DNA of 64,000 nt, taken from contig CM060731.1 in the NCBI GenBank assembly GCA_030704615.1, forward strand, positions 31,992,001 to 32,056,000, in the 5' to 3' direction. Both the position numbers and the translations under genes were made by a program. Each line of letters begins with the position of its first letter. The first letter of the stretch is position 1. The DNA is from Takakia lepidozioides (lineage: Eukaryota > Plantae > Bryophyta). The notes under the pieces were generated by a model, which saw only the letters and a list, made by a program, of their open reading frames with translations, had not been told where the DNA came from and searched no databases. Shown piece after piece: positions 4,651 through 27,664 of this stretch.

Positions 4651-4653
4651 AGT

Positions 4654-4671
4654 TCCCCAGTATGGTCGCCA
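4654..4671 (-). promoter_or_regulatory. Primer binding site TGGCGACCATACTGGGGA of element A
   Basis: Lies 2 nt after the LTR-terminal CA. An identical motif occurs at 32753-32770. It resembles the tRNA-Arg-type PBS of Tat/Ogre elements. Confidence 0.85.
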
Positions 4672-4673
4672 AA

Positions 4674-5514: not shown

Positions 5515-7100
5515 GGTGTTAGCCCAAAATGTTACAGGAAATATAGATTCACCTGGTGTACTATGCTAGCAGGTTGATGAACAGTGCTGAAAGGAACTAC
5601 AGCACAACTGAAAAAAAACACTGGCAATGATTTATGCAGTCAAGAATTCAGGCATTACCTATTGGGAAAAAGTTTATGTTTTATGTGGATCACCAGGCTC
5701 TGATATTCTGGTGAACAAACCTTTGATAAGTGGCTGGATAGCAAGGTGGTTAATAATCTTGCACGAGTTTGAGTTCGAAGTGTTTACAAGCCTGGCTGTT
5801 TGCATCTTGGGCAGATCATTTGTCACCCTAACAACAGAGAGACCGCCACAGGAGTAACGACAATTGCCTGATGCGAGTTTATTTGCAATGGAGGTGCAAG
5901 GAAGTGCAAATGAATGGTTAGATTGGCAGTGGCCATCAGATACTACCTTACTCATGGTCAGTGCCCACCTAGTTATGGTAAGGAGCAGAGGAAGAAATCG
6001 CTATCAAAGCTTTACCTTATACTATGGTAGGGGGCAGAATGTATAGCTAGGACCTGATGGAGTCTTAAACGATGCTTGTACCACCATGAAGTAAATAAAG
6101 TTTTGGAGGAAGTTCATAAAGGATGGCTGGAGGACATTTTGGAGAAGAGACTACCAGTATGAAGATACTCTTGCAGGTTATTGGTGCCTACTTTGTTCAG
6201 GATGTACACAAGTATTGTCATAGAGTTGTGATGAATGTCAGAGGCTAGGACCTTTGCAGAGATCTGGGAAGATGGCTTTGCATCCTACGATGCCTACTGA
6301 ACCCTTTCAAATGGGACTAGACTTTGTTGGACCATTAACCCCCAGCCAAGAATACACAGACACGTATATAATTACAACAGCCACACTTATACTACGAAGT
6401 GGGTGGAAGCAAAGCTCTGAGGACAACACAGCCAATCCACACAAGGTTCATATTGAGAACATACTTACACGATGGCTGTCCTTGATTTATCAGTGACCAG
6501 GGAAGTCACTTCATTAATGAGACCATTGAACCTTGCTAAAGAGTTCATGATTGTGCATAAGAAGAGTACAACGATTACCACAGGGTAATGGGCAGGCAGA
6601 GGCTACCAACAAATTACTATGTACTATCTTGGCTAAGATAGTCAATGCAACAGAACGGATTGGGATACAAAGCTGCTGACAGCTTTGTGGTCATACAGAC
6701 TTTTATAAAGTCACCACTAAGTATACACATTCCAATTAGTTTATGGTATGGAAGCTTTACTTCCAGTGGAATTCTTGTTACCTACCATGAGAACGGAATG
6801 GGGAAAGAGAATGGATGGGAAGATTAATTAAGGTCAGGAAACATGAATTATACCAGTGGAAGAAGTACGTGCTGATGCACTGATACATGACCAGAATTCG
6901 ATGAAGAGGAAGAACAGTTGATGAAACAATTAAGACTTTTAAGCGACGGGAGATTTGGTTCTCTCTCTCTGTTGTAAAGAAGGGGAAGATTAAAGCTTCT
7001 AAGCTTAATCACCATGGAAAGGACCTATGTCATACAGAAGATGTATGATAACCACCACCGCCATGTTACAAACCATTAACAAAGAGATGCTGGGAGAGTC
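5515..7100 (+). pseudogene. Degenerate RNase H and integrase of element B
   Basis: Motifs are read across frameshifts; ORF fragments 5627-5857, 5864-6046 and 6254-6496. Confidence 0.88.
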
Positions 7101-9136
7101 ATGCCATAATTTGAGGGGTAATCCATGACAAACCTTGCAGCACACGATTTGCTGTTGAAACGCAAAACAGTCACGGGCTGCGCCAGTGATACCAACGGTA
7201 TGGAGCCTTGTCGCTAAGCCGAGCATATATGACCAGGGCGGGAACTACAGGTGTTCGCATCCTATCACAGCCCATCACAACACAGCGTGACACAGCCATC
7301 CCAGCCCATCCAGTGCCAAACACGCCTATCACAGCTCAACACACAAGCCTACCGGTGTTCACAATAGTCCATAGGATCAGTGACAGGTGGACGTGGGTAC
7401 ATCCGAGAGTGGCCGGCTTAGAACTGGACACGTGGACGCCAGGGCAGACACACATCCCCGGACCTGAATTGCAAGACGGGTGTCTTACAGAAGGAAAGAC
7501 AAATTGGCCGTCAAAGTACCTCCCCGGCACGTTAACCGCATTTTTTATTGTGGGCCCATTAATGCATACAGGAAGGGTAACGGAACCCTTTACAGTACCA
7601 AAGCGAAATCCCTGTCACAAGTTCTATCCTAGTGGACAGTCCATGGGGAAAATCCACGGAAGGGATTAAATTACAAACCATCACAGAGCCAACAGCTAAT
7701 CATGAGCCAGAATTACATGCAGAGGGTATTTTCCAAGAAGCAAGATCAAGAATTTAGAGAAATTAATGAGCGCAAGAGTCGGCTTGGTTCCGGTAACGGA
7801 CGTCTCGACAGGGGAGACCCAATCAAGCTAAGTTTTGAAGCTATGGCAGAAAATAAAAACTACCACGCTCGCCTTACTACTTACCAGTGGCCAGGACATA
7901 CGAACGGGAGTACATTTTCTCTAATCGATACTTGCCAGCCCCACAGGCTACAAGCACTTACCCCATTTCTTCTGTTCCAACCCTACCTTCATGCGTGCCC
8001 TGCAAGCTTTCCTTCAGCTGTTTCAAACAAAGCCTTCTGTTGTCTAGATGAAGAGAGTGATGGGAATGGAGGATCTCGGTTAAGAGCCGACGATACTGCA
8101 GAAGCAAACAATTGCGCACCGCAGGCAGTACGCTGCTACGGAGTTGCGATTGAAAGGGATTGCTACGCAAGGACTTGTCCTTGCATCATCGACTTCATGA
8201 TACAATTTCTTTCTTTCTTCAGAATTTTGAGCCTCGGACGGGAAGTTTACTCAGGTGAGGGAAGTAGATATAGACATTACTGACTCCCCAATACCCTGCA
8301 GCAATTGTTTGATTTGCCATCAGACATGTTGATGTGGATGAGCCACAGGGCAAGATTGCAGATAGGGATTGTTCCAAGAAGGGAGTTTCTTTAAAACTCA
8401 AGGGCTACTCTGTACCAAAGCCGAGTACCCAGGGCTTAGGGAGTTGGCCAAATATTGAACGTTCTGTTTGCCATGAAACAGAACCAACAGTTATTTGAGC
8501 AGTCATTCACAGAGGATATCCTGAAAGCTTTGAGGGGAGAGGATTCGCTTGGCGGATTAATGTACAATGGATTGGTGACAAGATGAAGAGGTTACAGGCA
8601 CTGCTGCTAATCTCTCCGATCATTGTGTCTCCGGATCATTGTGGTCCCGATCCAGTCATTGCCGCCCAAATCCTTCTTGATTCTCTGCATACTTGATACT
8701 CGGAGACGTAAGAGATGATGGGAGTGTTTGAGCAGAACCACTGCACTTCGAAGAGCAAGGCTCTTCACAACCGTGAGGGTGACTAACACCGCAACAGCCA
8801 GTTTAGAACAGAGGCGAGGTATGACGTGTGTGGCGGATCCACTGGCTTCATCAATTCCACGAACCGCACGATAATGTTTGCCAACTCTTGTGTAGGTGGG
8901 GCCAGCAGCACAGAGAGCTGCTATTATTGGAACGGCCTTCAGAGGGAAGAGAAGTCACTTCAAATACCACAGCCACCAACCAGTGACTCAGTTATTTTAG
9001 AGGTTCCACAGTTAGTATATGTTTGACAATCACCCCATTGCTCTGGAAGGAGAAAGGTTGGACATTCCCACTACAGAGCAGGTCTGTGGCCGAAATTGAG
9101 AGGTGACTTCTCTATGAAAACTGTGGCTTGGTAAGG

Positions 9137-9240
9137 GAGGTTTACTATTTCATGAGCAGAAACCATGAGCCATGAGCCATGAGCCGCATGAGCCGCATGA
9201 GCGGTGAGCCGAAGTCTAAGATACGCGGATTTCATGAGCG
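9137..9240 (+). repeat. Left TIR and subterminal CATGAGC tandem repeats of the MULE
   Basis: catgagc/catgagccg is repeated about 7 times and is mirrored as gctcatg at the right end. Confidence 0.85.
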
Positions 9241-9987
9241 GACTCCTCCAAATTTGGAAATGCGGCAGATTAAACAAGTATTAAAATAATAGTTTTTTAT
9301 TTGACCTTGCCGTTTTTGGACGTTCCAGATCATGTAATGCGGCGAAGATATGTCGTCAGTAACAAGTCCGCTCATGGTTTTATAGATCCGCTCATGGAAA
9401 TAAGTGACCGTGCAACGGGAAATCCAGTATACCACTGCAAAAGGACGTCGCATACTGGCCTGTATAGAGTATTCCGCGGTTTTACATGCCTTAACATTGG
9501 AATGAAGCTGACCCTTTTGCCGCGATTGAACCAATGGAGTCTGCACCAATACAGTCTGCAGTACTTCACAATTCTGTCTTCTTCGGGTATTCGGCGGGAA
9601 AGGTTTGCAACTGAACTGGGAAATAGGGTGCCGCATTAGGGTTCGCACGTGCGAAATTTCGGAGCGGTTTGGTGTTGGCGAAGGCCGCCTCTGGGGGTAC
9701 CTACGACGATACTTGGAAATTCGGCGCCGCATTTCCTTGTCGGAGGTCGAATGAGGAGAGCAAGTTTTCGGAAAGCAGAAAAACATGAACCCTCCAACAT
9801 ACAAAAATACATGCACGTGGAAACAAGTGAACGATATAGTAATATCTTAGTTCGATCAAAACAGGTTACTGGTAGGCAAGACATATGTCGGACCTTTGTG
9901 TGGCCAGAGTCTGAGGTACTGGCAGCAGTACAGTTCTACTATCCGAAAAGGATGGGCGTACCATTGTATGTGGACCGCAAGCCAAGC

Positions 9988-12900
9988 TCACTGGTCCCCT
10001 GGATCCATATTCAGAAGAGTGTGAACCTCCTGGGGGCTCAACCCTGGTGCATGTATGAAGTGATGAGTTGTGGAATTACAACGGAGTCTCTTTAGGTACA
10101 CGTAGTACAAATGCTTGCAAGGGCAGTATGATGCCCCCTTGTTCGCCATGATCTGGAAGTCGGTGCAATTGCAGGTGGGTAATTCTGAAATGGTGATGGT
10201 GTACACCTCATTGCGAACAGCTGAGCCCGCCGTGGCCATCTGATACACACGCCCGAATCCTGGTGGGGGCACTTCTGTCGAGCTCTGGATTGTACAGTTC
10301 ATCCGAAGTGCATTCCCCATCCTTGTCTCGTTCACTTTTGAGGGAGGTCGCCGCCTCTTCGGTTTCCCCCAACGGTGTGTAGGATGCTTAGAGCTGTCGT
10401 GTCCCATTGTTCTTGCTCTCACAGGGGTCGGTGGTGGAGGCTGTGGAAGCGGAAATGGTTGTCTGGGGACGTCAGTGCGCTGCACCATCCGAAATCCTGC
10501 GGCGGTAAGGGCGTCGGCCTCAACCTGACTCAGATCGCAGCCTGGTTCCACCGGCCACACCGGGGGAGCCTCTGGCATTGTCTGTATGCCGTACTTGGGC
10601 TTTCCATACACGCAAGTCATAATGTCGTGCCTGCAGAACCAGAACTGGGTGGTTGTCGCCTCCGCAAACTTTGCATGGACAAATCTTCCTGTAAAAGTAG
10701 GAGCAGGGACAGCCCCATCTGGATTCCTCCTTATCATCTCTAAACAACGTTGCCGTGTATCCACACGAATTGCGGAACACCTTCCTCGAAACGACGGCTT
10801 TGTGCGAGCAATTCTCCACTGTGAGGCAGACACAGTCGTCTCCACAATGGCTTGGCCATACTGCATAACAGCGGGCGGAATGTGGGGCAAGGGAGCGGTG
10901 GGAATTTGTTGCACGAAATCCCCGGTTGAAGGCGACGGCGATCTGGAATTTCTTGGGCTTCCACTGCTGGAAGACACATTGTGCGGCAACATGACGGGAC
11001 CTCGAGGTGCTGTCCGAATGTTCCTGTCGGATCTCCAGGAATCCTCTTCGCACCCGGGTTCCTCTTCAATCCTCCGCCTGACAGGGCGAGTCCGGACGTC
11101 CCCCTCTAGGTGTTCACCTCTGCGGTGCAGAGGCGTCCCTTTGATCTTCTCTCGCAATGCTGTCGCCCATTTCACTGGATTCTTGGACCTCGAAGCTGTT
11201 CGTACCAACAATTCCTCCCTGTCCGGCCCAAAGCCCCATTGTTTGCCGCTCAGGAACTTGTAGTACGTGGCTTGCTGCATGATTGCTCTGTCGATGTCCT
11301 CCGTTGTGGCCGTCACTACGTCCACCAGATGTGCGGCAGAAGACGCTCGCCAGGAGGAGTGGACCGATTCTGCCATATTCGTGTTCGGCATGTCCGTGTC
11401 GGAATCCAAGCACCGCTCCTAGAAGGACACAAACAACGGTGAGGGACCAATCGAAATGTCCGTAACAGAAAGACAAATGAACGAAATTGACAGCAGCCTA
11501 CCTCCCGCATGTACTGTCCGAACTGTCGATACCGAAAATGCCACCACCCCAACCAGCTGTGCAATGCTCCCAGATTGGTTGTCTCCACTGCACCTGACGT
11601 GTTCCACCAAGCCTCGATGATAGCAAACTTAACCTCCGCGTCATCAAATGTGGGTGCATCCTTCCACGCCGTACAAAGGACACGGTGTTCAGCCTGGAAT
11701 GAGCTAGCAACAAATTTGGTAGTGTAGTGGGATAGACTCTGCATCCAATGGAATCCACAGGATCTCTCTTTCCCCTCCATTGGAACATTGGGGTCCTCAC
11801 CGTACACACGCCGCACCGCTGCCCAGTTGGCCTGAGCGTTGTCTGCCATGAATCCCCTGAAATTGGGCTCTGGCAATCCCGCCCTTGCCATCTGCTCGTT
11901 TATGCCCTCCCACAGATGCATCTCGGACTGTGTGTCCTCCCCTTTCATCTCGCAGATTGCAATCGTCATGAGCCTCTTGGAGTGATAGTCATAAACATGC
12001 GCACCCATAGTCACCCACTGATGGTTTGTAATTCGCTTGATGTGATCAAACATCACCCAAGCATTCGACAAGTTTCCAGTTGTCATGCGAGTGACCAAGT
12101 CGACTCCACTCCCAGGCCCACACGTCGACATTTTGAAAATGTAACAACGATCGGATTCGCTGCCTTGCCCTGGAAACCTGCTACCTTGGATGTAGTCATA
12201 TCCAGTCATTCGTTTCACCTCCAGGATTGAGTACATGTCCGACCCCCTGCCGAACTCCTGCTTGCAAGATACGATGTGATTCCGCACATTCGGACTACAA
12301 ACGTGCGAGACGGACTCCAAGAGGTCACGCATCTCGTCTTCGGTCAAGGGCTCTCGGTCGGAACCATCTTCAGACATGATTTTGCCAAGAGCAATCTTGT
12401 GGGCTGCCTTCAGCTGAATCTGCTTTGGTCTGGCTCCGGGGCTCAATTTCACCTCCTCTTTTATGATGTCGTGTGCTTCCTGCACAGCCTCACGCATGTT
12501 GCCTCTCGCCAAGGGTGGCAGTGGACCCCAACGTGTATGCAAGCTCTAGTCAAGTCCGGGAGCAAATGGATTACGTAATATTGCTTGGCTCTGCACATGG
12601 ACATGCACGTCGGTGGTTCTTTGCAATGTGCACACTTGAAAGAACCCGCAGGAGCTTGGCTGGAGACAATGAATGGATGATGCGTTGTGCCAGTCCAATC
12701 CGTCTCGTTTCTCCGCCCTCCTTTGGAGAGAAAGTGGAAGCAGGTGGGATTGAGGCACCTCAGCTTCCCCGCACAGAGGACATATCGTACACGAACACCA
12801 TCAGCAATTTTCGTGCTACTGGTCTTCGTCACACACCAGGGGTGTCCGTCATGCTTTCGATCCATGTCTGTTAACATCCCGGAGGCTTTCTTTGACGAAG

Positions 12901-13594
12901 AAACAGGTGGAAACTCGAAGATGACATTGCCATCGACTTCGGGAGGCAGAAAAGTTACCTTTCTGACTGGGAATTTGGCATAGTCGAGAGCAGCCAGCTC
13001 GGAGCGAGAACCATCGAGGTGATGTTGTCGTAGGAGCTGCACAATGGACCGGGTTGGAGTTATGCTCGAGGGCACATGCGTAGCACCTACAGAGACGTCC
13101 ATGCCGGATTTGAACGACCGTGTGGAGGACATGGGTACCTCAATGCAATCATCTTCCTCGTCGGAAATGTCGAATACGTCCACACGAGAAGCTATGGAGG
13201 GTCTTGACGGTCCAGGTCGGGAATGATTATCGTTGCATACCTCTCTGTTGGCAGTGGCCGCCTCTCGGTTTCCGGACTCCTTTGTGGATGGTGTGGGCAG
13301 CGACTGATTCGGAAAGGGAATGGGCATTCCCACAGCTCGGTACAGGATGGTGTCTGACGGGGGAACGTGCCATTCGATTCCGCAACCTCCGTCGTTACCT
13401 AGCACGACAATGGTCTCGTCAACCTGTCCAGGAACATCCTTCCTTTCTTCTTCCAAATAAACTGTGCCCGGTTTGAGCTTGAATTTGGAACAAAGGTAAG
13501 TTTCAGTCACTCTGCAAAGTCCTCCCTCGTTTGGGATCCAGGCTCTCCCAAGTTGCGGAGGACAGCAAACTATAGCGTAGGAATTCGGAGCCAT
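9988..13594 (-). CDS. MULE transposase (N-terminal GCM/WRKY-like zinc domain, DDE catalytic domain, C-terminal SWIM zinc finger); 2 exons, one 1-bp frameshift
   Basis: Motifs KHDGHPW...CAGKLRCLNPTC..CAHC..HCH, VMFDH (D1), FMADNAQANWAAVRRVY (D2), CGFHW (CxxH), NTNMAESVH (E) and SWIM TCNCTDF..CPCKHL. A GT-AG intron at 11501-11419 joins the exons in frame. Frameshift at ~12513. The start (MAPNSY) is a best guess. Confidence 0.9.
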
Positions 13595-14021
13595 CGAACA
13601 CCGCACGGAGTTGGCAAGTGCGAGGTTCAGTATAGCGACAGACCAAGGCTCACAGGCACCATCTAAGTGGATCTGCGGAGTCCATCGACAATTGGAAGTC
13701 GCACATTGAAGTGGAAAGTATTGTTTCAAGCTACATGCATGAAGGTGGGAGGTTTGATTCCATAGCCAGTGAGTAGGACAATGATGGCCGATTCGGCGAC
13801 GAAATAACATCTCCTGACAGTTTCTCCTGAGGGTGGATCCAGCAGTATTCTCGGTGCAGACAGGAACGTTCGCACTGACAAGTGCCAGGACTGCTGGTTA
13901 AAACGGTCAGACAACCAAGTTGTGCTCATCAAGACTGGCCGCAATTGTGTTGTTTCGGAACAATGCAACCCATTGAGGTTCCAGATTTCCCGTCCCGAGT
14001 GATTCTGTCGATTGCTGGTGG

Positions 14022-15770
14022 ACGGAAATACGGCGCCGCATTTCCGTATTGCATCTTGGTCATGCAACAGAGCGACGGAAATGCGGCACCGAGTTTCCGT
14101 CCGGGGGAAACCTTTATACTCTCCAGAACGGAAATGCGGTAACGCATTTCCATCCAGCAAGCACGGTATGTGAAGGTGGAACGGAAATGCGGTACCGCAT
14201 TTCCGTTCTGATTGAGATTTATGAACAACGGGAACAGAAATGCGGCACCGCATTTCCGTCCGAGTCGCACTTTTCGACATTCCAGAACGGAAATGCGGCG
14301 CCGCATTTCCATTTTGTATCTGATGCATGGAGCTGAGGGATAGAAATGCTGCAGCACATTTCCGTCCTTAAAAGACATTCATACTCTCGAGAACGGAAAT
14401 GCGGTACCGCATTTTCATTCAACAAGCACGGTATGTGAAGGTGGAACGGAAATGCGGTACCGCATTTCCGTTCTGATTGAGAATTATGAACAACGGGAAC
14501 AGAAATGCGGCACCGCATTTCCGTCCGAGTCGCACTTTTCGACATTCCATAAAGGAAATGCGGCGCCGCATTTCCATTTTGTATCTGATGCCTGGAGCCG
14601 AGTAAGATTCCGACAGCTTCATACAGCGCAATTCCGACCGGTTGAGACATTCACACTATCCAGAACGGAAATGCGGCACCGCATTTCCGTTCTGACTGAA
14701 AATCGTGAACTATCTGAACTGAAATGCGGCACCGTATTTCCATCCGAGTCGCACCTACCATCATTCCAGAACGGAAATGCGGCACCGCATTTCCGTTCTG
14801 ACTGAAAATCGTGAACCATCGGAACTGAAATGCGGCAACGTATTTCCATCCGAGTCGCACCTACCATCATTCCAGAACGGAAATGCGGTACCGCATTTCC
14901 GTTCTGACTGAAAATCGTGAACCATCGGAACTGAAATGCGGCAGCGCATTTCCATCCGAGTCGCACCTCCCAACATTCCAGAACGGAATGTATTAGATTT
15001 AAAAGGGAAATGCGGCACCGCATTTCCGTTCTGATGAAATATCCTGAAACATCGGAATTGAAATGCGGTACCGCATTTCCGTCGGAGTCCCACCATCCGA
15101 CATTCCAAAACGGAAATGCGGCACCGCATTTCCGTTTTGTATGTGAGGCATGGAGCTGTGGAACGAAAATGCGGGAAGGCATTTCCGCCAGCGTCAGACG
15201 TTAATACTCTACAGAACGGAAATGCGGTACCGCATTTCCATTCTGACTGAAAATCGTGCGCAACGGGTACAGAAATGCGGCACCGCATTTCCGTTCGAGT
15301 CGCACCTTCCGACATTCTCGAACGGAAATGCGGCGCCGCATTTCCGTTTTGTATATTCGGCCTGGAGCTGTGCTACGGAAATGTGTTGCCGCATTTCCAT
15401 CCATGTGAGACCTTCAACCTTTCCAGACCGGAAATGCGACACCGCATTTCTGTCCAGGTGAGACCTCTATACTTTCCCGAACGGAAATGTGGCACGGCAT
15501 TTCCATTCATCAACTAACGTATGTGAAGTGGGAACGGAAATGCGGCGCCGCATTTCCCTTCTGAATCTCATACATGGAGCTGTGGGACGGAAATGCGGCA
15601 CCGTATTTCCGTTCAACAACTAAGGTATGTGAAGGTGGAACGGAAATGCGGTGCCGCATTTTCTTCCAACAAGTACGGATGTGTAGCTTCGTGATGGTAC
15701 TTAACGGAAATGCGGCGCCGCATTCGCATTCTCGCTCCAACTCATCAGACGCTGGGACGGAAATGCCTTG
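14022..15770. repeat. Palindrome array 1: ~33 units of ACGGAAATGCGG-YR-CCGCATTTCCGT with a 53-bp period
   Basis: AAATG starts at 14026, 14079, 14132 ... 14556, then 14669 ... 14934, 15008 ... 15644, 15708 and 15761. The ~27-bp linkers fall into about 5 classes. Confidence 0.95.
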
Positions 15771-16161
15771 AAATGTGAACACGTGGAGCAACGGAATTGC
15801 TGCACATGTCGGCACTCTATCTGACTGAAGGGGCATGAGGCGGCGCGGCCTGACCGTTGGATAATGATGTTTGATTTTCGGACGGCAGGCGTACCCTCAA
15901 CGATTCGAATTTCGTAATGACGCAAACTCCACGAGGAGACACTTTCGTCCAACCTTTCGAACCCAAGTGGTGCATCACCGCCGTTTCATCTACTTTTGTC
16001 GTGTCTCCTCAGTCACCCCTCTCGCGCCCTTTCCATCTGCACTCTTTGCCCCTTTTCCCTCTCTCTGTTCTTCTTATGCTCGAACCTGAGAGGGGGGAGT
16101 TCGTGCACCAGACAGGAGACCTCGTCGCAAGCTCCGGAAATTATACTTCGGACGTAGGCCA

Positions 16162-19100
16162 ATGCCGAAGGGGAGGAAGCAGATGCGTCTACAGGAGGAG
16201 ATTGCCATCTCCGAGCAGCAGGCCACTCAGGCAACCCAGCCACCAGTGAGAGCTCCATGCGATCGGGCTGCGCGCAGCTGATCGAGCACCGAACCCCCCA
16301 TTTTGCTTCTGTAATTCTTAGACTGAATGCTAGGAGACTTGAATGCAGAACATGTTTGCATGCCTAACAGGAAAGGTGGACGTGCTGGAGGGATCGCAGG
16401 AATCCGAAGAGCCGCAGGAAGAGTCCGAGGAGCTAGCTGCAGCACGTACACCCACCCGATCCCCGAGCGCGGGTATTCCTGCCGGGCCTAGCCCTCTGCG
16501 ATTCAAAGACGCGTCTTCGAAGGGCAAGTTCAAAGTCTCAGAGATCGACTCGCGTTCTTCGATCATGGAGAATCGCCAGCAGGGGTCGGGCCCTTCTCCA
16601 GCAAAGTCGAAGAAGAAGCAGCCCGTCCCTCTACTGGCTTCTGAACCGGCTCAGGCCGATTCACCCCCCCCAACGCGAATGAAGCAGCAGGGTAGAAGAC
16701 AGATTCTATTGCAGCAGACACCTTCACCTGCAAGGATGAGGAAGCAGAAGGCAATCAGGGCGACGGGCGAACAATCTCCCGCAAAACCGCTTCCACGAGC
16801 TGAAGCTCAGTTCCTGGAGGATTTCCCGCCTGCAGATGTTGGGGCCGACTCTGCTGCAGCGAAGGCAATGGGATCGACCGTTGATCTCGATTTGGTACCG
16901 GAGGAGGGTGCTGCCGCTGAACGTTCGCAGGCAGACCTCACCACCGATGAGCTAGCAGGCCCGGAGGAGGCCTCTGCAATGGCAGAATTGCCCGCACACA
17001 GGCCCCAGAGTGCAGCTCCAGTTGAGGATGCTCCAGCTGCTCAGCCACTACCGGCACCTACAGACATGTCTCCGGAGGATTTCAAAAGTGCAGCGGATAA
17101 AATGTTGGAGGAGACACACAGTAGCATTGGCAGAGTTCTGGGCAGCAGGGTATTCCAGCGGACTCTTCGAATCCCACTCTGTCGCATGGTCTCCCTTCCC
17201 ATCGTCAGGCAGGCCCTTCCCGGAGATGTGGATAAGCTCAAGTTCGCATTTCGAGAAGGGTACCGTCTGGGATCGGCAGCGTTTTACGTTTCCATAGAGA
17301 ATGAGGACGGCGAAACCCGTGGACCCACTGCCGATGAATTGTCAACGTGGGATACCCACTGGCACACTCGCAACCACGAATTCGAGGCGACGCTGAAGGG
17401 TGATCCCGACTTCGGCCATATGTCGGGTAAAATGTTCTTTGTGTGGGACGGGAATCACCGACTTCTCGCCTGGTGGGAGTACATCAAGCAGAACCATGCC
17501 AAGCACATTGGCTGGCATTACATGGTGGAGTGTGTCATCCTCAAGGTGAAGGCGGCAGACTCCTCCCTGCTCAAGAATGCCATGGCGGACCTCAACTCGT
17601 AAGATACTCATACCCTCCCTAGCACATTCGAAATGCGGTGCCGCATTTCGGTTTCCATTCTGGTTTGATTCCGTGCTTCCGTGTACTGAACTGGAGAGTG
17701 TGCCTTGCAGGGTCACTGAGAATGCGTACGTGCATACCCACATGGCACATATGCTGTACAGGGTGAGGAAAACTGGTCTTACTGATCCGCAGATGTTTGC
17801 GGAAATGCTGGAGCCTGAGCTCATTCAGAAAGCCGTTGCAAAAACAGACCGGACATGGTATCGTCTCACTATGGATGGAATGGTGGAGGTGATATACGAA
17901 GTAAGTCGTGCTCCAATTTCCCTCTGCTCATCCTTCCCCAATTTCCAGTAATGTTTCCACATGAATCGAATGTAACGCTTCTGCATGTTTTTGTTGGCAG
18001 TCAAACATCAAGCTGGATTTGGCCCATGCCAAACGCTTCTTCATGGAAAGTGAGGGGCAGGTCAAAACGTTGCAGTCATTGACTGAGCACTTGAAGGAAG
18101 CCGGTGTCAAGTCCAGAACCAAATACAAGTCAAAGCTTGTGAAGCTGGTGGCAATTGCAGATCCGGCACTTGGAAAGGACTTCATCCCCGAGATTGCAAA
18201 ACACTATTCTCGGGCCATGCAGCCGACCATGCAATTGGAGAAACTGCATCACCTCTCAACGGCATGTGTGGAGGCGAAAGAGAAGGTGAGGTTTCAATGC
18301 ACTGAATTTCCTTCCTAGCAATAGCCACTCTCTTCCAGCCACTGACATTGGATCGGAAATGGCAGACACGGTGGCTGTCGATCTGGAATGCATCCGAGAG
18401 CATAAGGACAATGTGGTCTTTTCCACTGGAAGTTTCCGACCCTGCAGTGGATGTGTGGCTCAACCGTATGACTTGGTGGTTCCAGGTAATTCAAGGTACT
18501 TCCCCAGATTTGCTTTTCTGACATGAATTCCCTGAACTGCTACGTGACAATGCATTTGGGAATGGCAGGTAATGTCGAATGCGAAGGAGCAAGTCGTAAT
18601 GCACACAAATTCGTTCGGCTTGTACGTCAAATGGGATGGAACACAGACATTGGAAGACTACGTGACACGTTTCAGATGTGCGTACAAGGACAACCTTTTC
18701 GCCAGAGAGCTACAGACAGCAAGAAGGAGCGTGGAGTTTACACATCAGGAGGGAGCGGGGAAAGCTGCAATGCGAATTGTTTACAGGTGAAGCACAGCTG
18801 CCCTTGTATGCGAAGCCTGGTTACGAGGTTTGTCTCGGAAATGCGGCACCGCATTCGCATTTTATGTTTTCGGTGGCACTCTGCCAGTAGGTTGGTCTCA
18901 ACTTTTGCTCACGCATGCTGACTGCCTTGCAGGTATATGAAATACGTGCTCCTTCAGACAGGGGCCCTGGCTCAAGAGCCCCCGTTCTTCATGGCTTGGA
19001 CCGTGGCGGGCCCAAGCTGTGTCTACACACCCGAGATGCAGAAACAATGGCATCCCGCGCATCTCGTTGGATGCCCGTGGTACCTGGACATGTCTGGCGG

Positions 19101-21285
19101 TATTGTTGACGAGTCTGAGAAAGATCTGCACGCCTTGGCAGAAGAGAAGAGAAAGGAAAGACGTGTCCCTGCTGGGCCAAAGTCGGCAAAGGAATCTGCT
19201 GCTCTGGAAGAATCCAGAAAGGCAGCTGAGATGGCACAAAAGACGGTGGATGCAGCTGTGCAGGCCCAACAGAAGGGGTCGAAGAAGAGGACTCGCCAGC
19301 AAGGAGCAGCTGTTGTGACACCCGCCAAAACGAAGAAGCAGAAACAGCCTGTTCAGGAAGAGGGTGAGGAAGAGGACTCCGATGGAGACTTTGCAACCAG
19401 CCCACCCCCCAAACGCAGGCTGCCTCCCCTGTGCCCACCGTTGTCACGAGAGGCACGAGAACTGGCTCGGCAAAGAAGGCACTCTTCAACCCCCCAGGGG
19501 GGCACCCTTTCGAGCCGGTGGAAATGAAGAGGCCGAAAGTGGCTCCCGAAACTGTAGTCCAGTGTGTAAATGAGAGTTTCTTGGCGGCTTTGGATGGACG
19601 GGCAGCCAAGTTGGCATACATGAAGACCATGGAGGGTCTGAAGGGCAGAGCACTGAAGAAGGCGACTGCCGAAGAGCCTTCCGACACCCCAGGATTTCAG
19701 AATATGGTCTCGTTCTTTGAGAGGGTGTGTGCAGACAAGGATTGTAGGAGGGGCGGAAATGCCACCGAGTGGTCTTGCGATATGATCATCTTGGATATTC
19801 CGGACGGAGAGCCTGTGGAAGGACTGCAAGCTTTGCCATCTTGGAACAGGTACTCGGAGGACTTTTGGAAGAAAGGATTCGGGCTTGCCCGCATGGTGTT
19901 GGACGACAGAGGCTGTGTGGTTGTCCTGGCGAGCAGAGGAAAAAACACTCAGACAGGAATTGCGAAGTGGACCCGCAAGAGCGCCGTCCCGATTCTGAAA
20001 AAGAAGTGGACGTGCATCAACACACTGGGCCTTCGGTCGGAAGGGAAGAAGGTGATTACGACACTGGCACTCGTCCATTCATTTGCTTGGGTGCTTTCAA
20101 ATGCGGTGCCGCATTCGGTTTCTAATCGTTTTCCCCCTGTGTATGCAGACGAAGCAGTTCGATGCATACTGCTTTGTGAAGGAAAACTCCACCTTTGCTT
20201 TCCGGAAGGAGGGAGGAAAGGTTGACCCGAACTGCGACCCACTCGATTACGACGTTCTGTTCAACAACGTTCCCAAGGAACTTCTCCCTCATAGCCTCAC
20301 TTCAACGGAACCCCTGCGGTACTCACGGACTCGGAGCCCTGCCTTCATTCAGACAATTATGGAGACATGCACAGACGTGGAGGGCACAGTGCTCGACCTC
20401 ATCTGTGGGACAGGTATGCAGAATCTTGATCTCTGCTGTTCTGCAAATTCTCGTTAGGATGTAGTTCGCAACATCTGAAGCGCCATGTGGTAATGTGTGG
20501 ATGGCATTGTAACAGGTGCCTCAATGTGGGCTGGGCGGTTTTCCGACCGGCACCTCTTTGCCTACGAGGAGGATTCATCCGTGTGGGGATCCCATCTGGA
20601 GGGGCTGCAACGGAATGTGAAGGCTCCCGACAGAGCGGAAGTCTCCTCGGATTCGTCGGAGTCCGAGGAAGACACAGTGGACATTGATGCAGAGGAGAAC
20701 CCGGAATACGAGTGAGTGCAAACATTGTAAGTTTGCAAAGCCTTCTGGGTCATTTATGTCAAAGGAATTTCCCGACTGTGGTTCTCATTAGTCTCGTTGA
20801 TGATTGTCATGTGCAGGATTGCAGGGTCCGGGTCGAAACATGTAGGGCCTACACTTCCTGCCAGGAAGAATGTCCCGTTCTTTGCGAGGGCCGACTTCAT
20901 GACGAGCCCGGTGAGGGACTACTCCCTTCCTAGTTATGCAGCTAAACTCGCAAATACAGCGATTAGAAGAAGTGAGAATCCCAGTAAAGTAGAGCAGATT
21001 TTGGAGAGGGCTAGGGAGGACAGAAGGATAAGGAAAGAGTTGGCAGCAGCTCAGACAGGTAGACGGGTACGAAAGTACATATGTGATTCAGCGGATGAGA
21101 GCGACGCAGACAGGGAGGAAGACGACCCAACGGAGGTGAGATGGACAGTTCCGCAAGGGGAAGATGGGATTTTCGAAAGCCTGGCCAACGAGCAGTCCGC
21201 TGGAGATGAGAGAGGCACTGAGGGGGTGGAGGAGGAGCAGGACAGTCTAGAACAGGATGAGGATTCCGATGATTTTCAAGATTAA
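16162..21285 (+). CDS. Multi-exon MULE cargo gene: ParB/Srx-like domain plus beta-class N4/N6 DNA amino-methyltransferase-like domain, acidic tail
   Basis: ParB-like GKMFFVWDGNHRLLAW (core 17441-17461). MTase motif IV-like CDMIILDIPDG (~19794). After splicing, RSPAFIQTIMETCTDVEGTVLDLICGTG|ASMWAGRFSDRHLFAYEED matches the N6_N4_Mtase pattern KPxxLxxxLIxxxTxxGDxVLDPFxGSGTTxxAAxxxGRxxxGxExD. About 10 exons joined by GT-AG introns (e.g. 17599-17710, 17901-18000, 20414-20515). One 1-bp frameshift at ~19428. First exon and start are uncertain. Confidence 0.78.
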
Positions 21286-21419
21286 TAGAATTTTAATGAA
21301 GTCTCTGTAAATGTAAATTCTCTTCCACAGTATATAAAGAAAATTCTGCCCGACATTCGTGACCCCTCTCCAGTGTGCATTCCAGCCACACAATCGCCCA
21401 AACCAGGACGCTCCCAAAA

Positions 21420-22315
21420 TCAGAAATGGGTCAGGGCATTTCCAAAATTTTGGCAACTCTAAGAACCTCTTTTGGAAATGCGGCACCGCATTTCCAAAAC
21501 AGGGGAGGGACTAATTTTTCCATTTCAATGTTGGCATAGTAAAAAGTAATCTGAACTGGGAATGCGGTGCCGCATTTCCAAAATTTCCTTTGTCCACACG
21601 CCAGTTTTGGCCTCTCCCGCTCATTGCATGGATGCCACCACGCTTACAGAGGTCGAACAAGGAGGCCGACATGGCGGGATTGAAAATGCGGTGCCGCATT
21701 TCCATATTGGGGATGGTCGTTGTTCGAACTGCAGGCCCATCAGCAAAAATTGGCACCGCATTCCATTGTAAAAAAAAAGTCGATGACGGACATGGAAATG
21801 CGGCGCCGCATTTCCAGAACGGACATTGCAATTTGTCCATTTGCAGACCCTCTCTCGGAAATGCGGTAACGCATTCCATCGCGCTGGTCGGAAATAGGTG
21901 CACTTTTCGAAGTGTTGGACGGAAATGCGGCACCGCATTCCCTTGTCCAAAAAGAAGTTTCCATTGCCACGCTGGAAATGCGTCGCCGCATTTGCAATGC
22001 CAACCTCGTTTTCTGATCAATTTATAGACCCGTGTTGGTATTTCGTGTACCTGGACGGAAATGATGTACCGCATTTTCTTGTCCCACATGGAAATGCGGT
22101 GCCGCATTTCGATGTCCGACATGGAAATGCTGTGCCGCATTTCGATGCGGACATGGAAATGCGGCACCGCATTTCGATCCCGACATGGAAATGCGGCGCC
22201 GCATTTCGATCCCGACATGGAAATGCGGCGCCGCATTTCGATGCCGACATGGAAATGCGGCGCCGCATTTCGATGCCGACATGGAAATGCGGTGCCGCAT
22301 TTCAATGTCCGACAT
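21420..22315. repeat. Palindrome array 2: ~17 copies, ending in 7 tandem 32-33 bp units (GACATGGAAATGCGG-YR-CCGCATTTCGATGCC)
   Basis: Copies start at ~21424, 21476, 21560, 21684, 21746, 21796, 21859, 21923, 21976, 22059, 22092, 22125, 22157, 22189, 22221, 22253 and 22285. Confidence 0.93.
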
Positions 22316-22820
22316 GGCGTTACTCTGGTATATTCTTGACACATGACTCACATACCGGTTACTCTGCTTTATTCAACCGGACAGACAAATTGTAGAAATG
22401 AGACATCAAATTGTAAACAGTGGGCCAAATCCGAGAGTTATTCAACACAATGAAACACAGTCATACAGAAGTGAGGTACATTCCAGGGCACACTCCAGGG
22501 CACATTTAAATTTCCCCCGTACATGATCCTGGACCGATGAAGATTGGCTGCTGCATGAATGTAGCCGTTTCAGTTTCCTACCCTGCCATGCAAACTATGG
22601 GCACTCACTGCCAGGTGGGCCGATAGCCACTGGACACGACGAAGTCCATCCCCTCTTCGATGTAAATGCGGCGCCGAATTTCCATCCGGGGGGATGGACT
22701 TCGGTGGCAGATCTCAAACTATAACTTGTTGATGAGAAAGATGTATGGCTTCATCCACCGCTGCCGTGATGAACACGTTCCACCTCCGTCGGTGGGTACG
22801 TGTGACCCAGATGCTCCATT

Positions 22821-23495
22821 TTGGAGGCCGGACTGCTCTTCCGCTTCGTATCTTTTCCAAAATCTAAGGGCTTCGTAGCTGTCCGCAAGGTCATCGGCAT
22901 CCAAGTCGTCCTCAGGTCCTCCTTTGCAAGGATGCCGTGCTTCCGGAACCGGGACGACTGCCCCTTTGGAGGCATCGATTATGCAATGTATTCGGCCACA
23001 TCGGGAGACATTGTTATCTGGTACACAGATTACAGAGAAGATACTGGTTCGATTGTGGAAACATTGGTGGCTTTTGAGTATATCGTAGGCCACTACGCCT
23101 TCGAGCGGGGTGACGATCTTGGTCTGAGGAGTCCGTGGCTCCTGCGCATCCTCGATTCCGATTTTCCCAGCTACGACGGTCACCCATGCAGAAGAAGGCG
23201 CACTGCTATGCTGTTGCGGTGGAACTGCTGCCACTGGACGTGGGTGGACTCCATCGGAGAGACCTATTCTCCTCGAGGAGTGCGCTCCTCTTCTCCATTG
23301 TATGGGGACATTCGCATTGGTGTGGACGACGAAAACGTGAAGATTTCCATATTCGATGGTGGTATGATTGAAGGGCAGGACATTGTGGTGATCATCACTA
23401 GGGGCGGTACAACGGCTGCAATCGACTTTACATGGAGGAGCCCCATGACTCATGAGCTAGTTCTGAGAGCAGTCGAAGTCCCATTGACAACGTGA
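22821..23495 (+). CDS. Possible third MULE cargo ORF, unknown function (224 aa)
   Basis: Open frame with globular, beta-rich-looking composition between array 2 and the right TIR. No motif recognised, and an antisense ORF of similar length overlaps it. Confidence 0.35.
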   Translation: MEAGLLFRFVSFPKSKGFVAVRKVIGIQVVLRSSFARMPCFRNRDDCPFGGIDYAMYSATSGDIVIWYTDYREDTGSIVETLVAFEYIVGHYAFERGDDLGLRSPWLLRILDSDFPSYDGHPCRRRRTAMLLRWNCCHWTWVDSIGETYSPRGVRSSSPLYGDIRIGVDDENVKISIFDGGMIEGQDIVVIITRGGTTAAIDFTWRSPMTHELVLRAVEVPLTT

Positions 23496-23877
23496 CTTGT
23501 ATTCAGTAGGCACAGGGCTCAAGATTTGATGGCACAATCAGCACAGTAGACGTGCTTCAAATGCAATTCATGTGGATCAATAAAAACCTCATTGTGCCCT
23601 CTTTTTATTATATTCTGTGTCCATCGTTCCGCGAATGCGTCATTGCTCATTTCGTTTGGGATTGGGAGTGTGGGTGGATTTTGCAAATGGCTGGTAAGCT
23701 GAAATGGGCCCCCATTGTACAGAGCAGTACCACCCTACCATTCGCGAAACATTGCCTTTCAATATATAATTCTAAATAACATTGCCGAACCTCCTTCATC
23801 GGGAGGTCCTTCTCCCCCTATGACCGTGGCACCCTAAACCCTATTCCCGCGGACACTCATTTCCGGAAAATAGTGCT

Positions 23878-23958
23878 GCTCATGTTTTTTTCCACACTTA
23901 CGACTCTGCTCATGGCTCATGCCGCTCATGGCTCATGGCTCATGAAATAGCAGCCCCC
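23878..23958 (-). repeat. Right subterminal GCTCATG repeats and TIR of the MULE
   Basis: gctcatggctcatgccgctcatggctcatggctcatgaaatagcagccccc is the reverse-complement counterpart of the left end. Confidence 0.85.
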
Positions 23959-26442
23959 TTGGTAAGGGAATCAGTGATTCCAGAGGTGCAGCGGTTGTCT
24001 AGGGGAAACCCTGCTATGCATGTAATACCCACACCTGTGACGGAGGTACCAGGGGTAGAATATCAAGACACTGCAGCACCTGTGGCGGATGAGGTGGTTC
24101 AGGAAGAAAATCTGGTGGGGCAATGGCCTGAATGGTTGGTGAGACATCACACTGTTGAGGATCAGGGAGAACAGCAACGAGCTCCCCATGAAGACCCTCA
24201 GCAGGCCATGCTTATGAGTTCCATAAGCAGAACACTTAATTTGTTGGGCACTTATGTGAAATCCCATGTTCCATCTACCCAATTGGCAGCTTTGAGGGAG
24301 GAGCTCAGAAAAGAGTTTGAGGCTCGATTTGCCACTGAGTGTGCAAACAAGGTCGATGAGGAGGTCAATATCAAGTTACAGCAAGAGTTAGAGGATACAA
24401 AAGCTGCTTTGCAGTTGGCCAAGGAACATTTGATTGAAGCAGGCCTCGCGCAGGACCAGTTGCACGAAGTACATAAACAACAGTTATACCAAATGCAGGT
24501 GAAGCATGAGGGCCAGTTGCAAGAAGTGAATGCACTACATACAGAGTTGCAGGCAGTACATGAGAGGATGACCATACAATGTGCTACACTCACAACTACT
24601 CTTGAGCAAACTGCATTAGAAGTTAACAGACAAAGGGAGAGATGTATGAAGGCAAAGGCAGAGATAGTCGAGCAGGCGAAACTCATTGTCGATATGAAGA
24701 ATACAATCTGTCGCAATGAGAATACTTTCAAGCAATACAGACAGGTTGAAGCTGACCAAGAGAGGTACATCCTGGAGTTGCAACAAACGGTCATGGTAAA
24801 TAGAAATGAACTCTTTGTGGCTAACAAGGCTTGGAAGGAAGCCAATAATCTGGCTACTGCCTATGCGAGTTTGGTTGAACCTCATGCGAAGCGCATGGAG
24901 GCTTTACAGCAGCAGTTAGATGTGTACAGGCTCACAGAGGAGCAGACTCTCAGGGGTGCCACACACAACTTGATGGATAACCACCTTATGCAGGTCTGGT
25001 TAGCACAAGGGCCGGTGGAAGGCAAAACACCACGGAAGCTCACCCAGGGCGAGATGAATGAGCTCAGACTGCAGGTGCAGAACATTGCCACAATTACTAT
25101 AGACAATGTCTATAGTAGGATAGCGGAGCTACAGGAGGATGTAGAAGGCCTGCAGACTCAGGTGGATGACCTGAGTTCAAATATTGACAAAAGAGTCTTT
25201 GTACCTGAGGAGCAGCTGATGGCTACTTATTTACAAGCCAGAACTCTAATTTTTCAGTCTTCTTCGCAAGGGGTGCAGGAGATGCTAGTGGTAGAAGGGC
25301 CACTTCTACCAATACCACAACAAGTGACTGTGCAGGTAGCTGACCCTGTTGTTACTACAGCCACACCACAGCCTGAGGTATGGGGGGATGCTGCTTTTAA
25401 CCCACCTAAGACTCCTGCTGCACGGGAGTACAGTCGGGCTATGATTATGCCTTTCAACCAAATTCCCATTGTGTTGGATTTGGCTTGGAAGAAATTTAGT
25501 CCTCCGCAGTCGTTGGCACATTACTACCAGATCATGCGCATTTGGCTACCAGTGGCAACTAGGACTAAGGTTCTTCCGAACAATCGACCCATTGAGGATC
25601 ATCACTTTGCGAGGTACTGGTCTGAAGCAAGTACCATGTTGAAGGAATTAATTGCCTTCCAAGTTGTACATGGGTACATTTATACCAAGACCAAGGAGGT
25701 AGCAAGTATTGTCATGGGCTGTGGATTATACTATGCTGCTTGTTTTCTGGCACGTTATCACATTGAGCAACAGAGGATGCAATCGCGATTTTTGGGTTAT
25801 TCCAGTGGGGATCATTGGGTCTTACCTTCAGTGCCACATCATATGTACCTATATGAAGCAAAAGTTATGATGCAAAAGGATTCCCAACTTCGTTCATGGT
25901 TTCATTCGGCCTGGAACAATTTGACAACACAGAAATTCGGCCCTGACGATATTTTCTTTAAGGGACATGAGGCATGGAAATACTTGCACTATTCCCAAGT
26001 CATTGGCACACCACTCACCTTTACGGACAAGGAATTCAAGGTGTTCACCAATTTTGCCATTAAGCGCTTACAGCAAGTTGTACAGTTTAAACTTCCAGAC
26101 ATGGTGGGACCACATTGTATGCCCCACAGGATTCCAGTTAGAGTTCGACCGTTAAAACACCTCAGGGGGGACGAGGATTCTGATACTACTGTTTCTTCAG
26201 CGGACTCTTTTGACATGGCAGAAGACTATGCACTTCAGATGGCAGAAAAGAAACGACGGGGATCTCCTATGCCTGAGAGGTTACCTCGATATCAGCCAAA
26301 GGAGGGTCAGACATTTCCGGGTAGTGCTCAATCATCTCCGTCAACCAGTGACAAGACTCGGGCTCGCACACGGAGTCCTTCACGAGACTCTCACCGTCAG
26401 AAGGGTGTTCGATCACAAAGGTTTGCTAATCCTAAACAGTAA
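23959..26442 (+). CDS. Extra 3' ORF of LTR element B (long coiled-coil protein, unknown function); 5' part cut off by the MULE insertion
   Basis: 827 uninterrupted codons from the TSD (LVRESVIPEV...) to a stop just before the PPT. E/Q/L-rich heptad region. The listed ATG at 23935 lies inside the MULE end. Confidence 0.75.
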   Translation: MVRESVIPEVQRLSRGNPAMHVIPTPVTEVPGVEYQDTAAPVADEVVQEENLVGQWPEWLVRHHTVEDQGEQQRAPHEDPQQAMLMSSISRTLNLLGTYVKSHVPSTQLAALREELRKEFEARFATECANKVDEEVNIKLQQELEDTKAALQLAKEHLIEAGLAQDQLHEVHKQQLYQMQVKHEGQLQEVNALHTELQAVHERMTIQCATLTTTLEQTALEVNRQRERCMKAKAEIVEQAKLIVDMKNTICRNENTFKQYRQVEADQERYILELQQTVMVNRNELFVANKAWKEANNLATAYASLVEPHAKRMEALQQQLDVYRLTEEQTLRGATHNLMDNHLMQVWLAQGPVEGKTPRKLTQGEMNELRLQVQNIATITIDNVYSRIAELQEDVEGLQTQVDDLSSNIDKRVFVPEEQLMATYLQARTLIFQSSSQGVQEMLVVEGPLLPIPQQVTVQVADPVVTTATPQPEVWGDAAFNPPKTPAAREYSRAMIMPFNQIPIVLDLAWKKFSPPQSLAHYYQIMRIWLPVATRTKVLPNNRPIEDHHFARYWSEASTMLKELIAFQVVHGYIYTKTKEVASIVMGCGLYYAACFLARYHIEQQRMQSRFLGYSSGDHWVLPSVPHHMYLYEAKVMMQKDSQLRSWFHSAWNNLTTQKFGPDDIFFKGHEAWKYLHYSQVIGTPLTFTDKEFKVFTNFAIKRLQQVVQFKLPDMVGPHCMPHRIPVRVRPLKHLRGDEDSDTTVSSADSFDMAEDYALQMAEKKRRGSPMPERLPRYQPKEGQTFPGSAQSSPSTSDKTRARTRSPSRDSHRQKGVRSQRFANPKQ

Positions 26443-26481: not shown

Positions 26482-27664
26482 TGTTTCAGGGCTGCTTGGG
26501 ACTTTAATGCTTTTACGGGTTCTGTGGGGTACCCTTAATTTTTACACAGACTGAGACCAACATGAGCCTTAGGAGTGACAGCAGCAGGCTTTAGGGGGGG
26601 GGGGGGGGTTACACAGCCCGTCACAGCCAGTCACAGCCAACACAGCCCGACACAGCTAGTCACAGTCAGTCACAGCCAACACAACCCGCCATAGCTTCGC
26701 ACAGCCCGTCACAACCGGTCACAGCTGCCACAGCCGACACAGCCCGTCACAGCCAACACAGCCCGACATAGCTAGTCACAGTCAGTCACAGCCAACACAA
26801 CCCGCCATAGCTTCGCACAGCCCGTCACAACCAGTCACAGCCGCCACAGCCGACACAGCCCGTCACAGCCAACACAGCCCGACACAGCCAGTCACAGCCA
26901 CCACAGCCGACACAGCCCGTCACAGCCAACACAGCCCGATACAGCCCGACACAGCCGACACAGCCAGTCACAGCCCGACACAGCCTTACACAGCCAGTCA
27001 CAGCTCGGCACAACTTGACACAGCCTGTCACAGTACATGGGGAACAGTTATCATTGGCAGGGAACAACTGTGAGGGAACGACATCTGCAGAAGGAACGTG
27101 TTACTTCAGGGATGACGGTTAATTAGTTAGGTGGTTAGAACAGCTTGCGGGCAGATAAGGGGAGTGGCAACGGAAAGATGGGACACACTTCACGGGGAGC
27201 TTCTTGGTCATGTAGGAGAGGAGATCAGGCGGAGAGTAAGAATGAGAGCAGAAAGAAGGAGAAAAGATGAACAGTAGATGCTTATTTCATGCAGAGCTGT
27301 AGTGATACTGTAGGGCGAATTAGAGTCACCTTGACATTGGCCTAGTACCTGATAAATCATAAACTGATACTTATTCGATACAAGCACACTGTGTAGAGAG
27401 ACATGAGTGAAGCTGTGAAATGAATGCATGATTAACTGGAACTAAGAAGATACTGAAGCAATCTGATGCTTTAGTATCAGATAAGATAAATTGATAACAT
27501 GAAGGCAAGAAGGAATACAAATGGGAAGCACAACCATGATTCACTAGCTGCAGGTCATGACTGATTGTACTGAGCGGGTTGAGTGCTTAGAGATATCCAA
27601 CTCTTCTATCTTGGAGTTTCCACCTCGGATAGCGAAGGGATGGGTGAGTAAAAGCCGTTCGACA
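26482..27664 (+). repeat. 3' LTR of element B (~1.18 kb) with an expanded CACAGCC tract
   Basis: TGTTTC...GTTCGACA. The terminal ~150 bp is nearly identical to the reverse complement of 32773 onward. Degenerate ~10-bp CACAGCC repeats at ~26610-27035. Confidence 0.9.

Follow-up and report, generated by a model that had tools for sequence, protein, structure and literature searches.

In Bostrychia moritziana and other red algae, the Plavaka accessory gene PAG3 (and PAG2) encodes a ParB-like domain and has tandem inverted repeats next to it, and its product has been proposed to bind and modify its own element (10.1101/2025.02.11.637652). A proposal to bind and mark the element has also been made for the accessory protein of Sola1-1_Ec32 in Ectocarpus, a protein of 1104 aa that combines a ParB-like domain with an N4-C/N6-A methyltransferase and is encoded on the strand opposite the transposase (PMC12477816). 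In Arabidopsis, the VANDAL elements subject to VANC are described as having family-specific tandem-repeat motifs in introns, intergenic DNA and terminal non-coding regions, with an effect that spreads into coding regions (PMC5735166, PMC10398659), a spread that has been called enigmatic (PMC10398659). The 4mC (N4-methylcytosine) methyltransferases of Marchantia, MpDN4MT1, are host genes with an intact TSPPY motif, and ParB is not named in the text describing them (10.1101/2021.02.12.428880). Here, a transposon from the bryophyte Takakia lepidozioides is compared with these systems. The window, that is, the whole stretch of DNA analysed, comprises 64,000 nucleotides (NCBI GenBank assembly GCA_030704615.1, contig CM060731.1, positions 31,992,001 to 32,056,000 of the forward strand), and all positions given below refer to it. 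It contains a Mutator-like element at 9137-23958 with a transposase gene, a divergently transcribed cargo gene and a family of long palindromes, three of which lie singly inside introns of the cargo gene.

Palindromes within the introns of the cargo gene

The repeated word is a 22-nt palindrome, GGAAATGCGG-NN-CCGCATTTCC, with an 18-nt core, AAATGCGG-NN-CCGCATTT, in which 16 positions are scored. When up to three mismatches are allowed in these 16 positions, the window has 52 copies, all within 9621-22681 and none in the 49 kb outside the element. Most of them form two arrays. Array 1 (14026-15725) has 31 copies, mostly 53 bp apart, and lies between the two divergent genes; array 2 (21476-22302) has 15 copies, with a 32-33 bp period at its end, lies 3' of the cargo gene and is accompanied by degenerate copies at 21424 and 21746. 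The other six copies are single. Three of these are in the cargo gene (16162-21285, plus strand; 10 predicted exons), where a preliminary description of the locus had placed near-perfect copies inside introns of about 100-150 bp. This placement holds: the core at 17631-17648 (no mismatch in 16) is in intron 2 (17599-17710, 112 nt), that at 18839-18856 (one mismatch) in intron 6 (18787-18932, 146 nt) and that at 20099-20116 (one mismatch) in intron 7 (20052-20148, 97 nt), all three being predicted plus-strand introns with GT-AG ends. The remaining singles, which the same description had listed, are a degenerate copy at 9621-9638 (three mismatches, score 9.9) and a copy at 9717-9734 (one mismatch), both 3' of the transposase, and a copy at 22664-22681 (one mismatch).

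A weight matrix trained on the array copies gives the intronic copies scores of 34.4, 32.1 and 17.0; the best scores elsewhere are -7.1 in exons, -13.0 in the other six cargo introns and 3.0 in the 49 kb outside the element. With no exon score above -7.1 and no copy in the transposase frame, the two main coding regions are free of full copies, as had been stated. A match at 11155 in the transposase, with four mismatches and a matrix score below zero, is at background level and was not counted. By length, the probability that all three in-gene copies are wholly intronic is about 0.004. Across the family, the CG of the arm is intact in 95 of 104 half-sites, and the central step varies (CA, CG, TG, TA) but is pyrimidine-purine in 51 of the 52 copies. 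The exact motif occurs in 596 Gb of prokaryote genomes as seven isolated single copies and in none of the viral contigs, so there is no sign of a bacterial parS with this sequence.

Removal of the nine predicted cargo introns leaves a frame of 1389 aa with no internal stop and one X, which marks a 1-nt indel near 19404 at which an extra base is seen in contigs of runs X3 and X4; in this gene model, the intron 1 acceptor is uncertain and was chosen for frame. If intron 2 or 6 is retained, a stop follows at once, and if intron 7 is retained, the frame shifts and the S-adenosylmethionine (SAM) motif falls out of frame. The intron positions can be compared with those of relatives through spliced alignments of 36 of 80 related metagenome loci (42 clusters), picked as long or cluster-representative, with profiles that included the window's own gene model and so lean towards it. 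Of the 34 loci that reach intron 2, 22 have an intron with identical residue position and phase, as do 12 of the 18 that reach intron 6; intron 7 agrees exactly in two of five well-scoring loci, and a third has it at the same residue in another phase. Spliced alignment with only a distant profile did not recover the window introns past the first donor. Residues 707 and 1080 are also where alignment pieces begin or break in tblastn, a program that does not model introns, and annotated Riccia and Adiantum proteins align across junctions 2 and 6.

Two presumed-RNA runs (none recorded as RNA, and used as contigs only) bear on splicing. Introns 4 (18286-18365) and 5 (18486-18568), both on the plus strand and without the motif, are spliced in the same contig; no contig of these runs bridges introns 2, 6 or 7, and one continues into intron 7 unspliced, covering its final 49 nt. 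From the open reading frame and the positions common to relatives, 17599-17710, 18787-18932 and 20052-20148 are read as introns. An exonic location of the copies, which the preliminary description had named as an outcome that would speak against it, is at odds with these shared positions, with the frame broken by retention and with the lack of the motif in exons.

Spacing, phase and CpG content

The intronic copies split the stretch between the arrays into 1923, 1208, 1260 and 1377 bp, and introns 2, 6 and 7 rank first among 84 intron triples for even spacing (coefficient of variation). The distinct spacings between neighbouring copies are 32-33, 53, 63-64, 74, 83-84, 96, 112-113 and 124 bp. 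These eight spacings below 200 bp cluster near multiples of 10.5 bp (mean cosine 0.68, p about 0.003), a period that scored highest among the 13 scanned. The flanks of the intronic copies match those of array units at 8-10 of 18 bases at best, which is chance level.

The element is without the CpG loss of its neighbours. With the motifs masked, CpG observed/expected is 0.71-1.04 over the ends, genes and arrays of the element and 0.28-0.48 in the flanks. At codon positions 3-1, CpG reaches 0.64-0.80 of expectation in seven stretches of the element, compared with 0.00-0.36 in seven flanking frames, among them an intact 872-aa frame; the value for gag is 0.22. Seven aligned, stop-free loci of the relatives keep 0.48-0.86 and most stop-ridden loci are depleted, and arrays alone therefore do not protect dead copies.

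Because of the helical phasing, the even spacing, the palindromes of relatives in homologous introns (below) and the CpG retention, it is well supported that the palindromes are putative protein-binding sites kept in non-coding gaps in the manner of VANC targets. This is the part of the preliminary account that stands. The gaps are not filled, since only three of the nine cargo introns are occupied and the transposase intron is empty, and the claim that the binding factor must coat the whole element is overstated: seven of 10 introns and 4.3 kb of transposase are without a copy.

Related elements and their own palindromes

With the window as query, the same transposase is found divergently upstream of the cargo gene in eight clusters, and in one more on a second round. 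The window palindrome itself is absent from the 80 related loci except for one 3-mismatch match. Palindromes of other sequence are repeated in front of the cargo gene in L005, L007, L009, L018/L069, L019, L029/L041, L043, L050, L053 and L064 (L numbers denote related loci), with at most 1-5 in the shuffle control, and similar palindrome words go with related cargo proteins within protein clades. The intronic placement also recurs. L019 and L043 each have one copy of their own palindrome at the intron 6 position; L021 has two mutually similar palindromes at the intron 2 position, on a short contig with no upstream array; and L005 has two own-palindrome copies past the intron 5 donor, the acceptor lying off the contig. 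Arrays with a 51-nt period inside the gene span of L018, L038 and L069 are probably intronic, and were not counted because a coding repeat is possible. The motifs of L073 and L079, which probably belong to other inserted repeats, were excluded.

In L015 and L025, the arrays are downstream of the aligned part. Second, different palindrome arrays are seen downstream of the cargo gene at 13717-14328 in L018, 8420-8955 in L075 and 18336-20185 in L025. No long palindrome is repeated in the introns of L001 and L006, two stop-free loci whose contigs include most of the gene and lack the region upstream. A contig of run X2, about 81% alike at 13781-13959, joins palindrome copies (window 13781-14471) and suggests that a diverged sister family shares the palindrome word.

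The cargo protein

The cargo protein has a disordered N-terminus, a ParB/Srx-fold domain at about residues 290-436, a helical part at 437-780 and an N4/N6-methylase-like part at about 985-1200. The exon 2 domain was modelled at a predicted local distance difference test score (pLDDT) of 94, and the model matches ParB, Noc, KorB, PadC and sulfiredoxin (Foldseek best E 0.005). All 33 Foldseek rows shown are from the ParB/Srx superfamily or its relatives; the top eight VIA rows have Z from 5.9 up to 7.4, the latter at a root-mean-square deviation of 2.8 over 92 residues. Taken singly, none of the matches is strong (E 0.005, Z 7.4), yet the top rows agree. Within the motif DGNHR, the G, N, H and R are each kept in 77-87 of 88 rows, and we take the G-x-x-R of DGNHRLxAW to be the counterpart of the ParB GERRxRA position. 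In the predicted structure, then, the domain has a ParB/Srx fold with a conserved G-x-x-R motif. Because this fold is common to sulfiredoxin and kinases, it does not show a clamp function. Among cluster representatives, 486 relatives of the domain were found at E 0.001, the named ones coming from Riccia and Adiantum. A further likeness of the domain is to clusters of fungal DUF3723 (score 0.92, 31% of members); DUF3723 is a family carried as cargo by Starship elements, and a literature search for the link found nothing.

The methylase part matches N6_N4_Mtase clusters, and the Riccia homolog matches PF01555 at E 5e-5, under the cut-off. In the cargo protein, ILDIP precedes VLDLICGTG, the catalytic motif thus standing before the SAM-binding motif as in beta-class N4-C/N6-A methyltransferases. 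The middle of the protein is helical, and helices also follow the ParB/Srx domain in a model of the Riccia homolog, of mixed confidence. A Pfam scan of 14 window frames, including the three large cargo frames at E 0.01 (exons 3-6 not scanned separately), matched no family; sequence searches of solved structures gave no relevant match, a word-index search with the methylase exon gave none, and no Pfam match to a ParA partner ATPase was found in the frames of the element. VANC-type domains are DUF1985/DUF287. The cargo protein was rejected as a VANC, with no VANC family matched in the three large cargo frames scanned and with folds of the ParB/Srx and methylase-like kinds.

How the palindromes may act

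The explanation favoured here, with moderate confidence, is that the intronic palindromes are outlying members of the 52-copy family and likely docking sites for the element's own cargo protein, which would bind the palindrome as a dimer, load on the phased arrays and the outposts, and keep the element under-methylated. The two arrays would load cargo protein near the promoters and the 3' end, cooperatively and on one face of the helix, and the intronic outposts would supply one site per 1.2-1.9 kb of the 5-kb cargo gene, the exons of which are not free to change. Once bound, the protein would keep host CG methylation off the element, by occupancy and spreading along it or through a rival amino-methyl mark. 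A more elaborate scheme, which is rather unlikely, has the cargo dimer of land-plant transposons acting on the DNA of its own element as a nucleotide-gated sliding clamp in the style of parS-ParB: it would load at private palindromes, with the intronic outposts about one spreading distance apart, and would take the methylase-fold domain along the element, so that host CG methylation is blocked or replaced; the address would have evolved separately in each lineage. If this scheme is true, the lineage-specific addresses would amount to natural orthogonal, programmable anti-silencing modules.

Several observations weigh against cargo protein acting through these sites. The absence of the motif from exons is predicted by coding constraint alone, and the motif-free parts extend to six of the nine cargo introns, the transposase intron and 4309 bp across the transposase. 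The test for even spacing is post hoc, and on the largest gap six of the 84 triples do as well; the spacings that enter the phasing test are partly derived from one another, and phasing is weak in ten relatives (p 0.03-0.07 at 10.4-10.5). Among the 17 relatives scanned, the cluster L050/L075 has an exon match (17.1, 11.2) and L009 has one at threshold; L007, L029, L053 and L064 have no copies in the aligned gene; and only four of the eight clusters with an upstream transposase have an upstream array. Descent alone would explain why the motif tracks the protein clade. The cargo introns are CpG-poor (0.52), and the CpG comparison is one of the element with its flanks, with no cargo-less DNA transposon of this genome in it. 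In the protein, no helix-turn-helix or other recognition domain was found, a fold search with the helical part giving generic helical matches only. The catalytic motif is DIPD, not DPPY or SPPY, and it is altered in every relative read (DYPE, DLPT, DFPT, DFPI, DVPF), so that methyl transfer by the cargo protein, judged from these residues, is doubtful.

The arrays might be functional and the intronic singles mere by-products, pieces of motif spread by slippage or conversion that survive where coding constraint is absent. Occupancy of three of ten introns and the several relatives without an in-gene copy fit such an origin, as does the report that tandem arrays are dynamic in VANDALs (PMC5735166). 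It is nevertheless unlikely, because the intronic copies stand at 0-1 mismatches in flanks no closer to those of array units than chance, their spacing is more even than that of any other of the 84 triples and four relatives repeat the intronic pattern with other words. Should the cargo protein be inert or the outposts neutral, the finding would reduce to repeats surviving where coding constraint is absent.

Binding by the transposase, for which the palindromes would serve as internal enhancers or activator sites while the cargo protein had another function, is distinctly unlikely, even though the AtMu1 transposase alone is reported to bind and hypomethylate its own family (10.64898/2026.08.24.746577), a precedent that tells against a role for the cargo protein. 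The Cys/His clusters in the N-terminus of the transposase would also suit this alternative, as would the same transposase standing divergently upstream in long relatives. However, the termini carry their own repeated word, CATGAGC, a likelier transposase site, and the palindromes lie on both sides of the cargo gene and within it but not in the transposase gene; moreover, in algae the ParB gene has passed from one transposase superfamily to another and, in Plavaka families, stands next to inverted-repeat arrays (10.1101/2025.02.11.637652). A role of the copies as pre-mRNA hairpins that control splicing or small-RNA output, or as binding sites of a host transcription factor, is very unlikely. 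In its favour, every copy is able to pair with itself, the predicted folding of intron 2 is better than that of shuffled sequence (z -2.1) and one presumed-RNA contig retains part of intron 7. Introns 6 and 7, however, show no such advantage over shuffles (z 0.7 and -0.8), and 46 of the 52 copies are in intergenic arrays with DNA-helical spacing. A word that changes between related elements is, for its part, a poor fit to one conserved host factor.

The element and its insertion site

The element (9137-23958, 14,822 bp) is inserted in a long terminal repeat (LTR) retrotransposon and has the 9-bp duplication TTGGTAAGG on both sides (9128-9136 and 23959-23967, plus strand), a word present only twice in the window. 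Its terminal inverted repeats are short and imperfect (80-92% over 39-51 nt): the left one (9137-9212, plus strand) carries CATGAGC words and the right one (23878-23958, minus strand) GCTCATG words. Other copies are indicated by contigs of public runs that end at 23958-23959 with different flanks, and two public-run contigs skip 9137-23958 altogether. Mutator-like (MULE) transposons make target-site duplications of 9-11 bp, and the element is a Mutator-like, cut-and-paste transposon.

The transposase frame (9988-13897, minus strand) is one open frame after splicing, with an uncertain start codon, a single intron at 11419-11501 and a 1-nt indel near 12512, where a run X3 contig has one more base. 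Read by eye, it has a putative D-D-CxxH-E core, the pattern typical of MULEs, and a candidate C-terminal SWIM finger, for which the match is weak (E 0.015, below the Pfam cut-off); the Pfam scan matched no MULE family in the frames of the element. A Sola identity of the transposase was set aside in view of the 9-bp duplication and the SWIM finger. Deep X3 contigs (X4 at two places) depart from the window by a single base in short runs at 12512, 15952, 16091, 19404 and 21454. Assembly slips are therefore the probable source of the frameshifts seen in the two genes, and this copy may be intact.

A possible third gene (22588-23495, plus strand; 242 aa, three predicted exons) has no Pfam match and no match among the related loci; a presumed-RNA contig covers 22872-23342. 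The 22664 palindrome may sit in its first intron (22615-22710), the acceptor of which is weak, and a second inverted repeat of about 14 bp encloses this copy in a possible 66-nt hairpin (22640-22705).

To the right of the insertion, the interrupted LTR retrotransposon has an 872-aa open frame (23968-26442, plus strand) without a Pfam match; to the left, its integrase region, at about 5500-7100, is full of frameshifts. Tandem repeats of the CACAGCC type at 5306-5417 and 26611-27033, on opposite strands and 75% alike, flank the host retrotransposon region. Long inverted repeats at 27305-27664 and 32773-33115 (160-170 nt, 79-90%) enclose 5 kb of pol-like sequence that resembles window 575-4685 (78-93%).

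Comparison with known systems

To our knowledge, VANDALs are the only elements shown to bind and unsilence their own sequence. Docking of the cargo protein at its palindromes would add an unrelated protein, of a fold noted for loading and spreading, as well as a site that is long and defined, phased arrays and three single outposts that can be mutated separately without touching coding sequence. The preliminary comparison with VANC holds for the placement of motifs in non-coding parts and fails for the likely factor, which is not a VANC; the motif differs in type, being a long palindrome. Like the VANDALs, this is a Mutator-like element with motifs in non-coding parts, introns included; unlike the VANC motifs, which are about 9 nt and in one orientation (PMC5735166), the word here is a 22-nt palindrome, and hypomethylation, shown for VANC (PMC5735166, PMC10398659), is here suggested by CpG retention in the sequence.

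As with bacterial ParB-parS, Noc and KorB (PMC7333895), the cargo system has the ParB/Srx fold, a G-x-x-R motif and repeated palindromic sites near the gene. It differs in the cargo motif DGNHRLxAW, in the fused methylase-like domain, in the lack of any helix-turn-helix found and in having no ParA match. With MpDN4MT1 of Marchantia it shares a prokaryote-type amino-methyltransferase in a land plant, the cargo having DIPD in place of TSPPY.

By description, the algal elements have an architecture of a ParB-like domain fused to a DNA-modifying domain, with adjacent inverted repeats, and the cargo and arrays fit it. As in PAG3, a DNA transposon has an accessory gene with an N-terminal ParB-like domain and adjacent inverted-repeat arrays; PAG3 differs in that ParB is fused to a 2-oxoglutarate (2OG) oxygenase, the methylase is a separate gene and the host element is of the EnSpm/Plavaka kind, and its description makes no mention of intronic copies, phasing or CpG retention (10.1101/2025.02.11.637652). 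As in Sola1-1_Ec32, going by its description, ParB-like and methylase-type domains are joined in one protein opposite the transposase; that element belongs to a brown alga, has a Sola1 transposase and is described in a main text without the term 'palindrom', whereas the present one is Mutator-like, with a 9-bp duplication and an altered catalytic motif (PMC12477816). A literature search, with most subscription papers outside its reach, found no land-plant description of a ParB-type cargo with palindromes. The cargo-palindrome system is a variant of the proposed self-marking kind of transposon, real and replicated in relatives, and it opens the algal proposal to direct test in a land-plant family whose protein-site pairs are many and different. 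For algal transposons, accessory genes of the ParB type next to inverted repeats had already been published; the intronic outposts, their spacing and the CpG retention are what this element adds.

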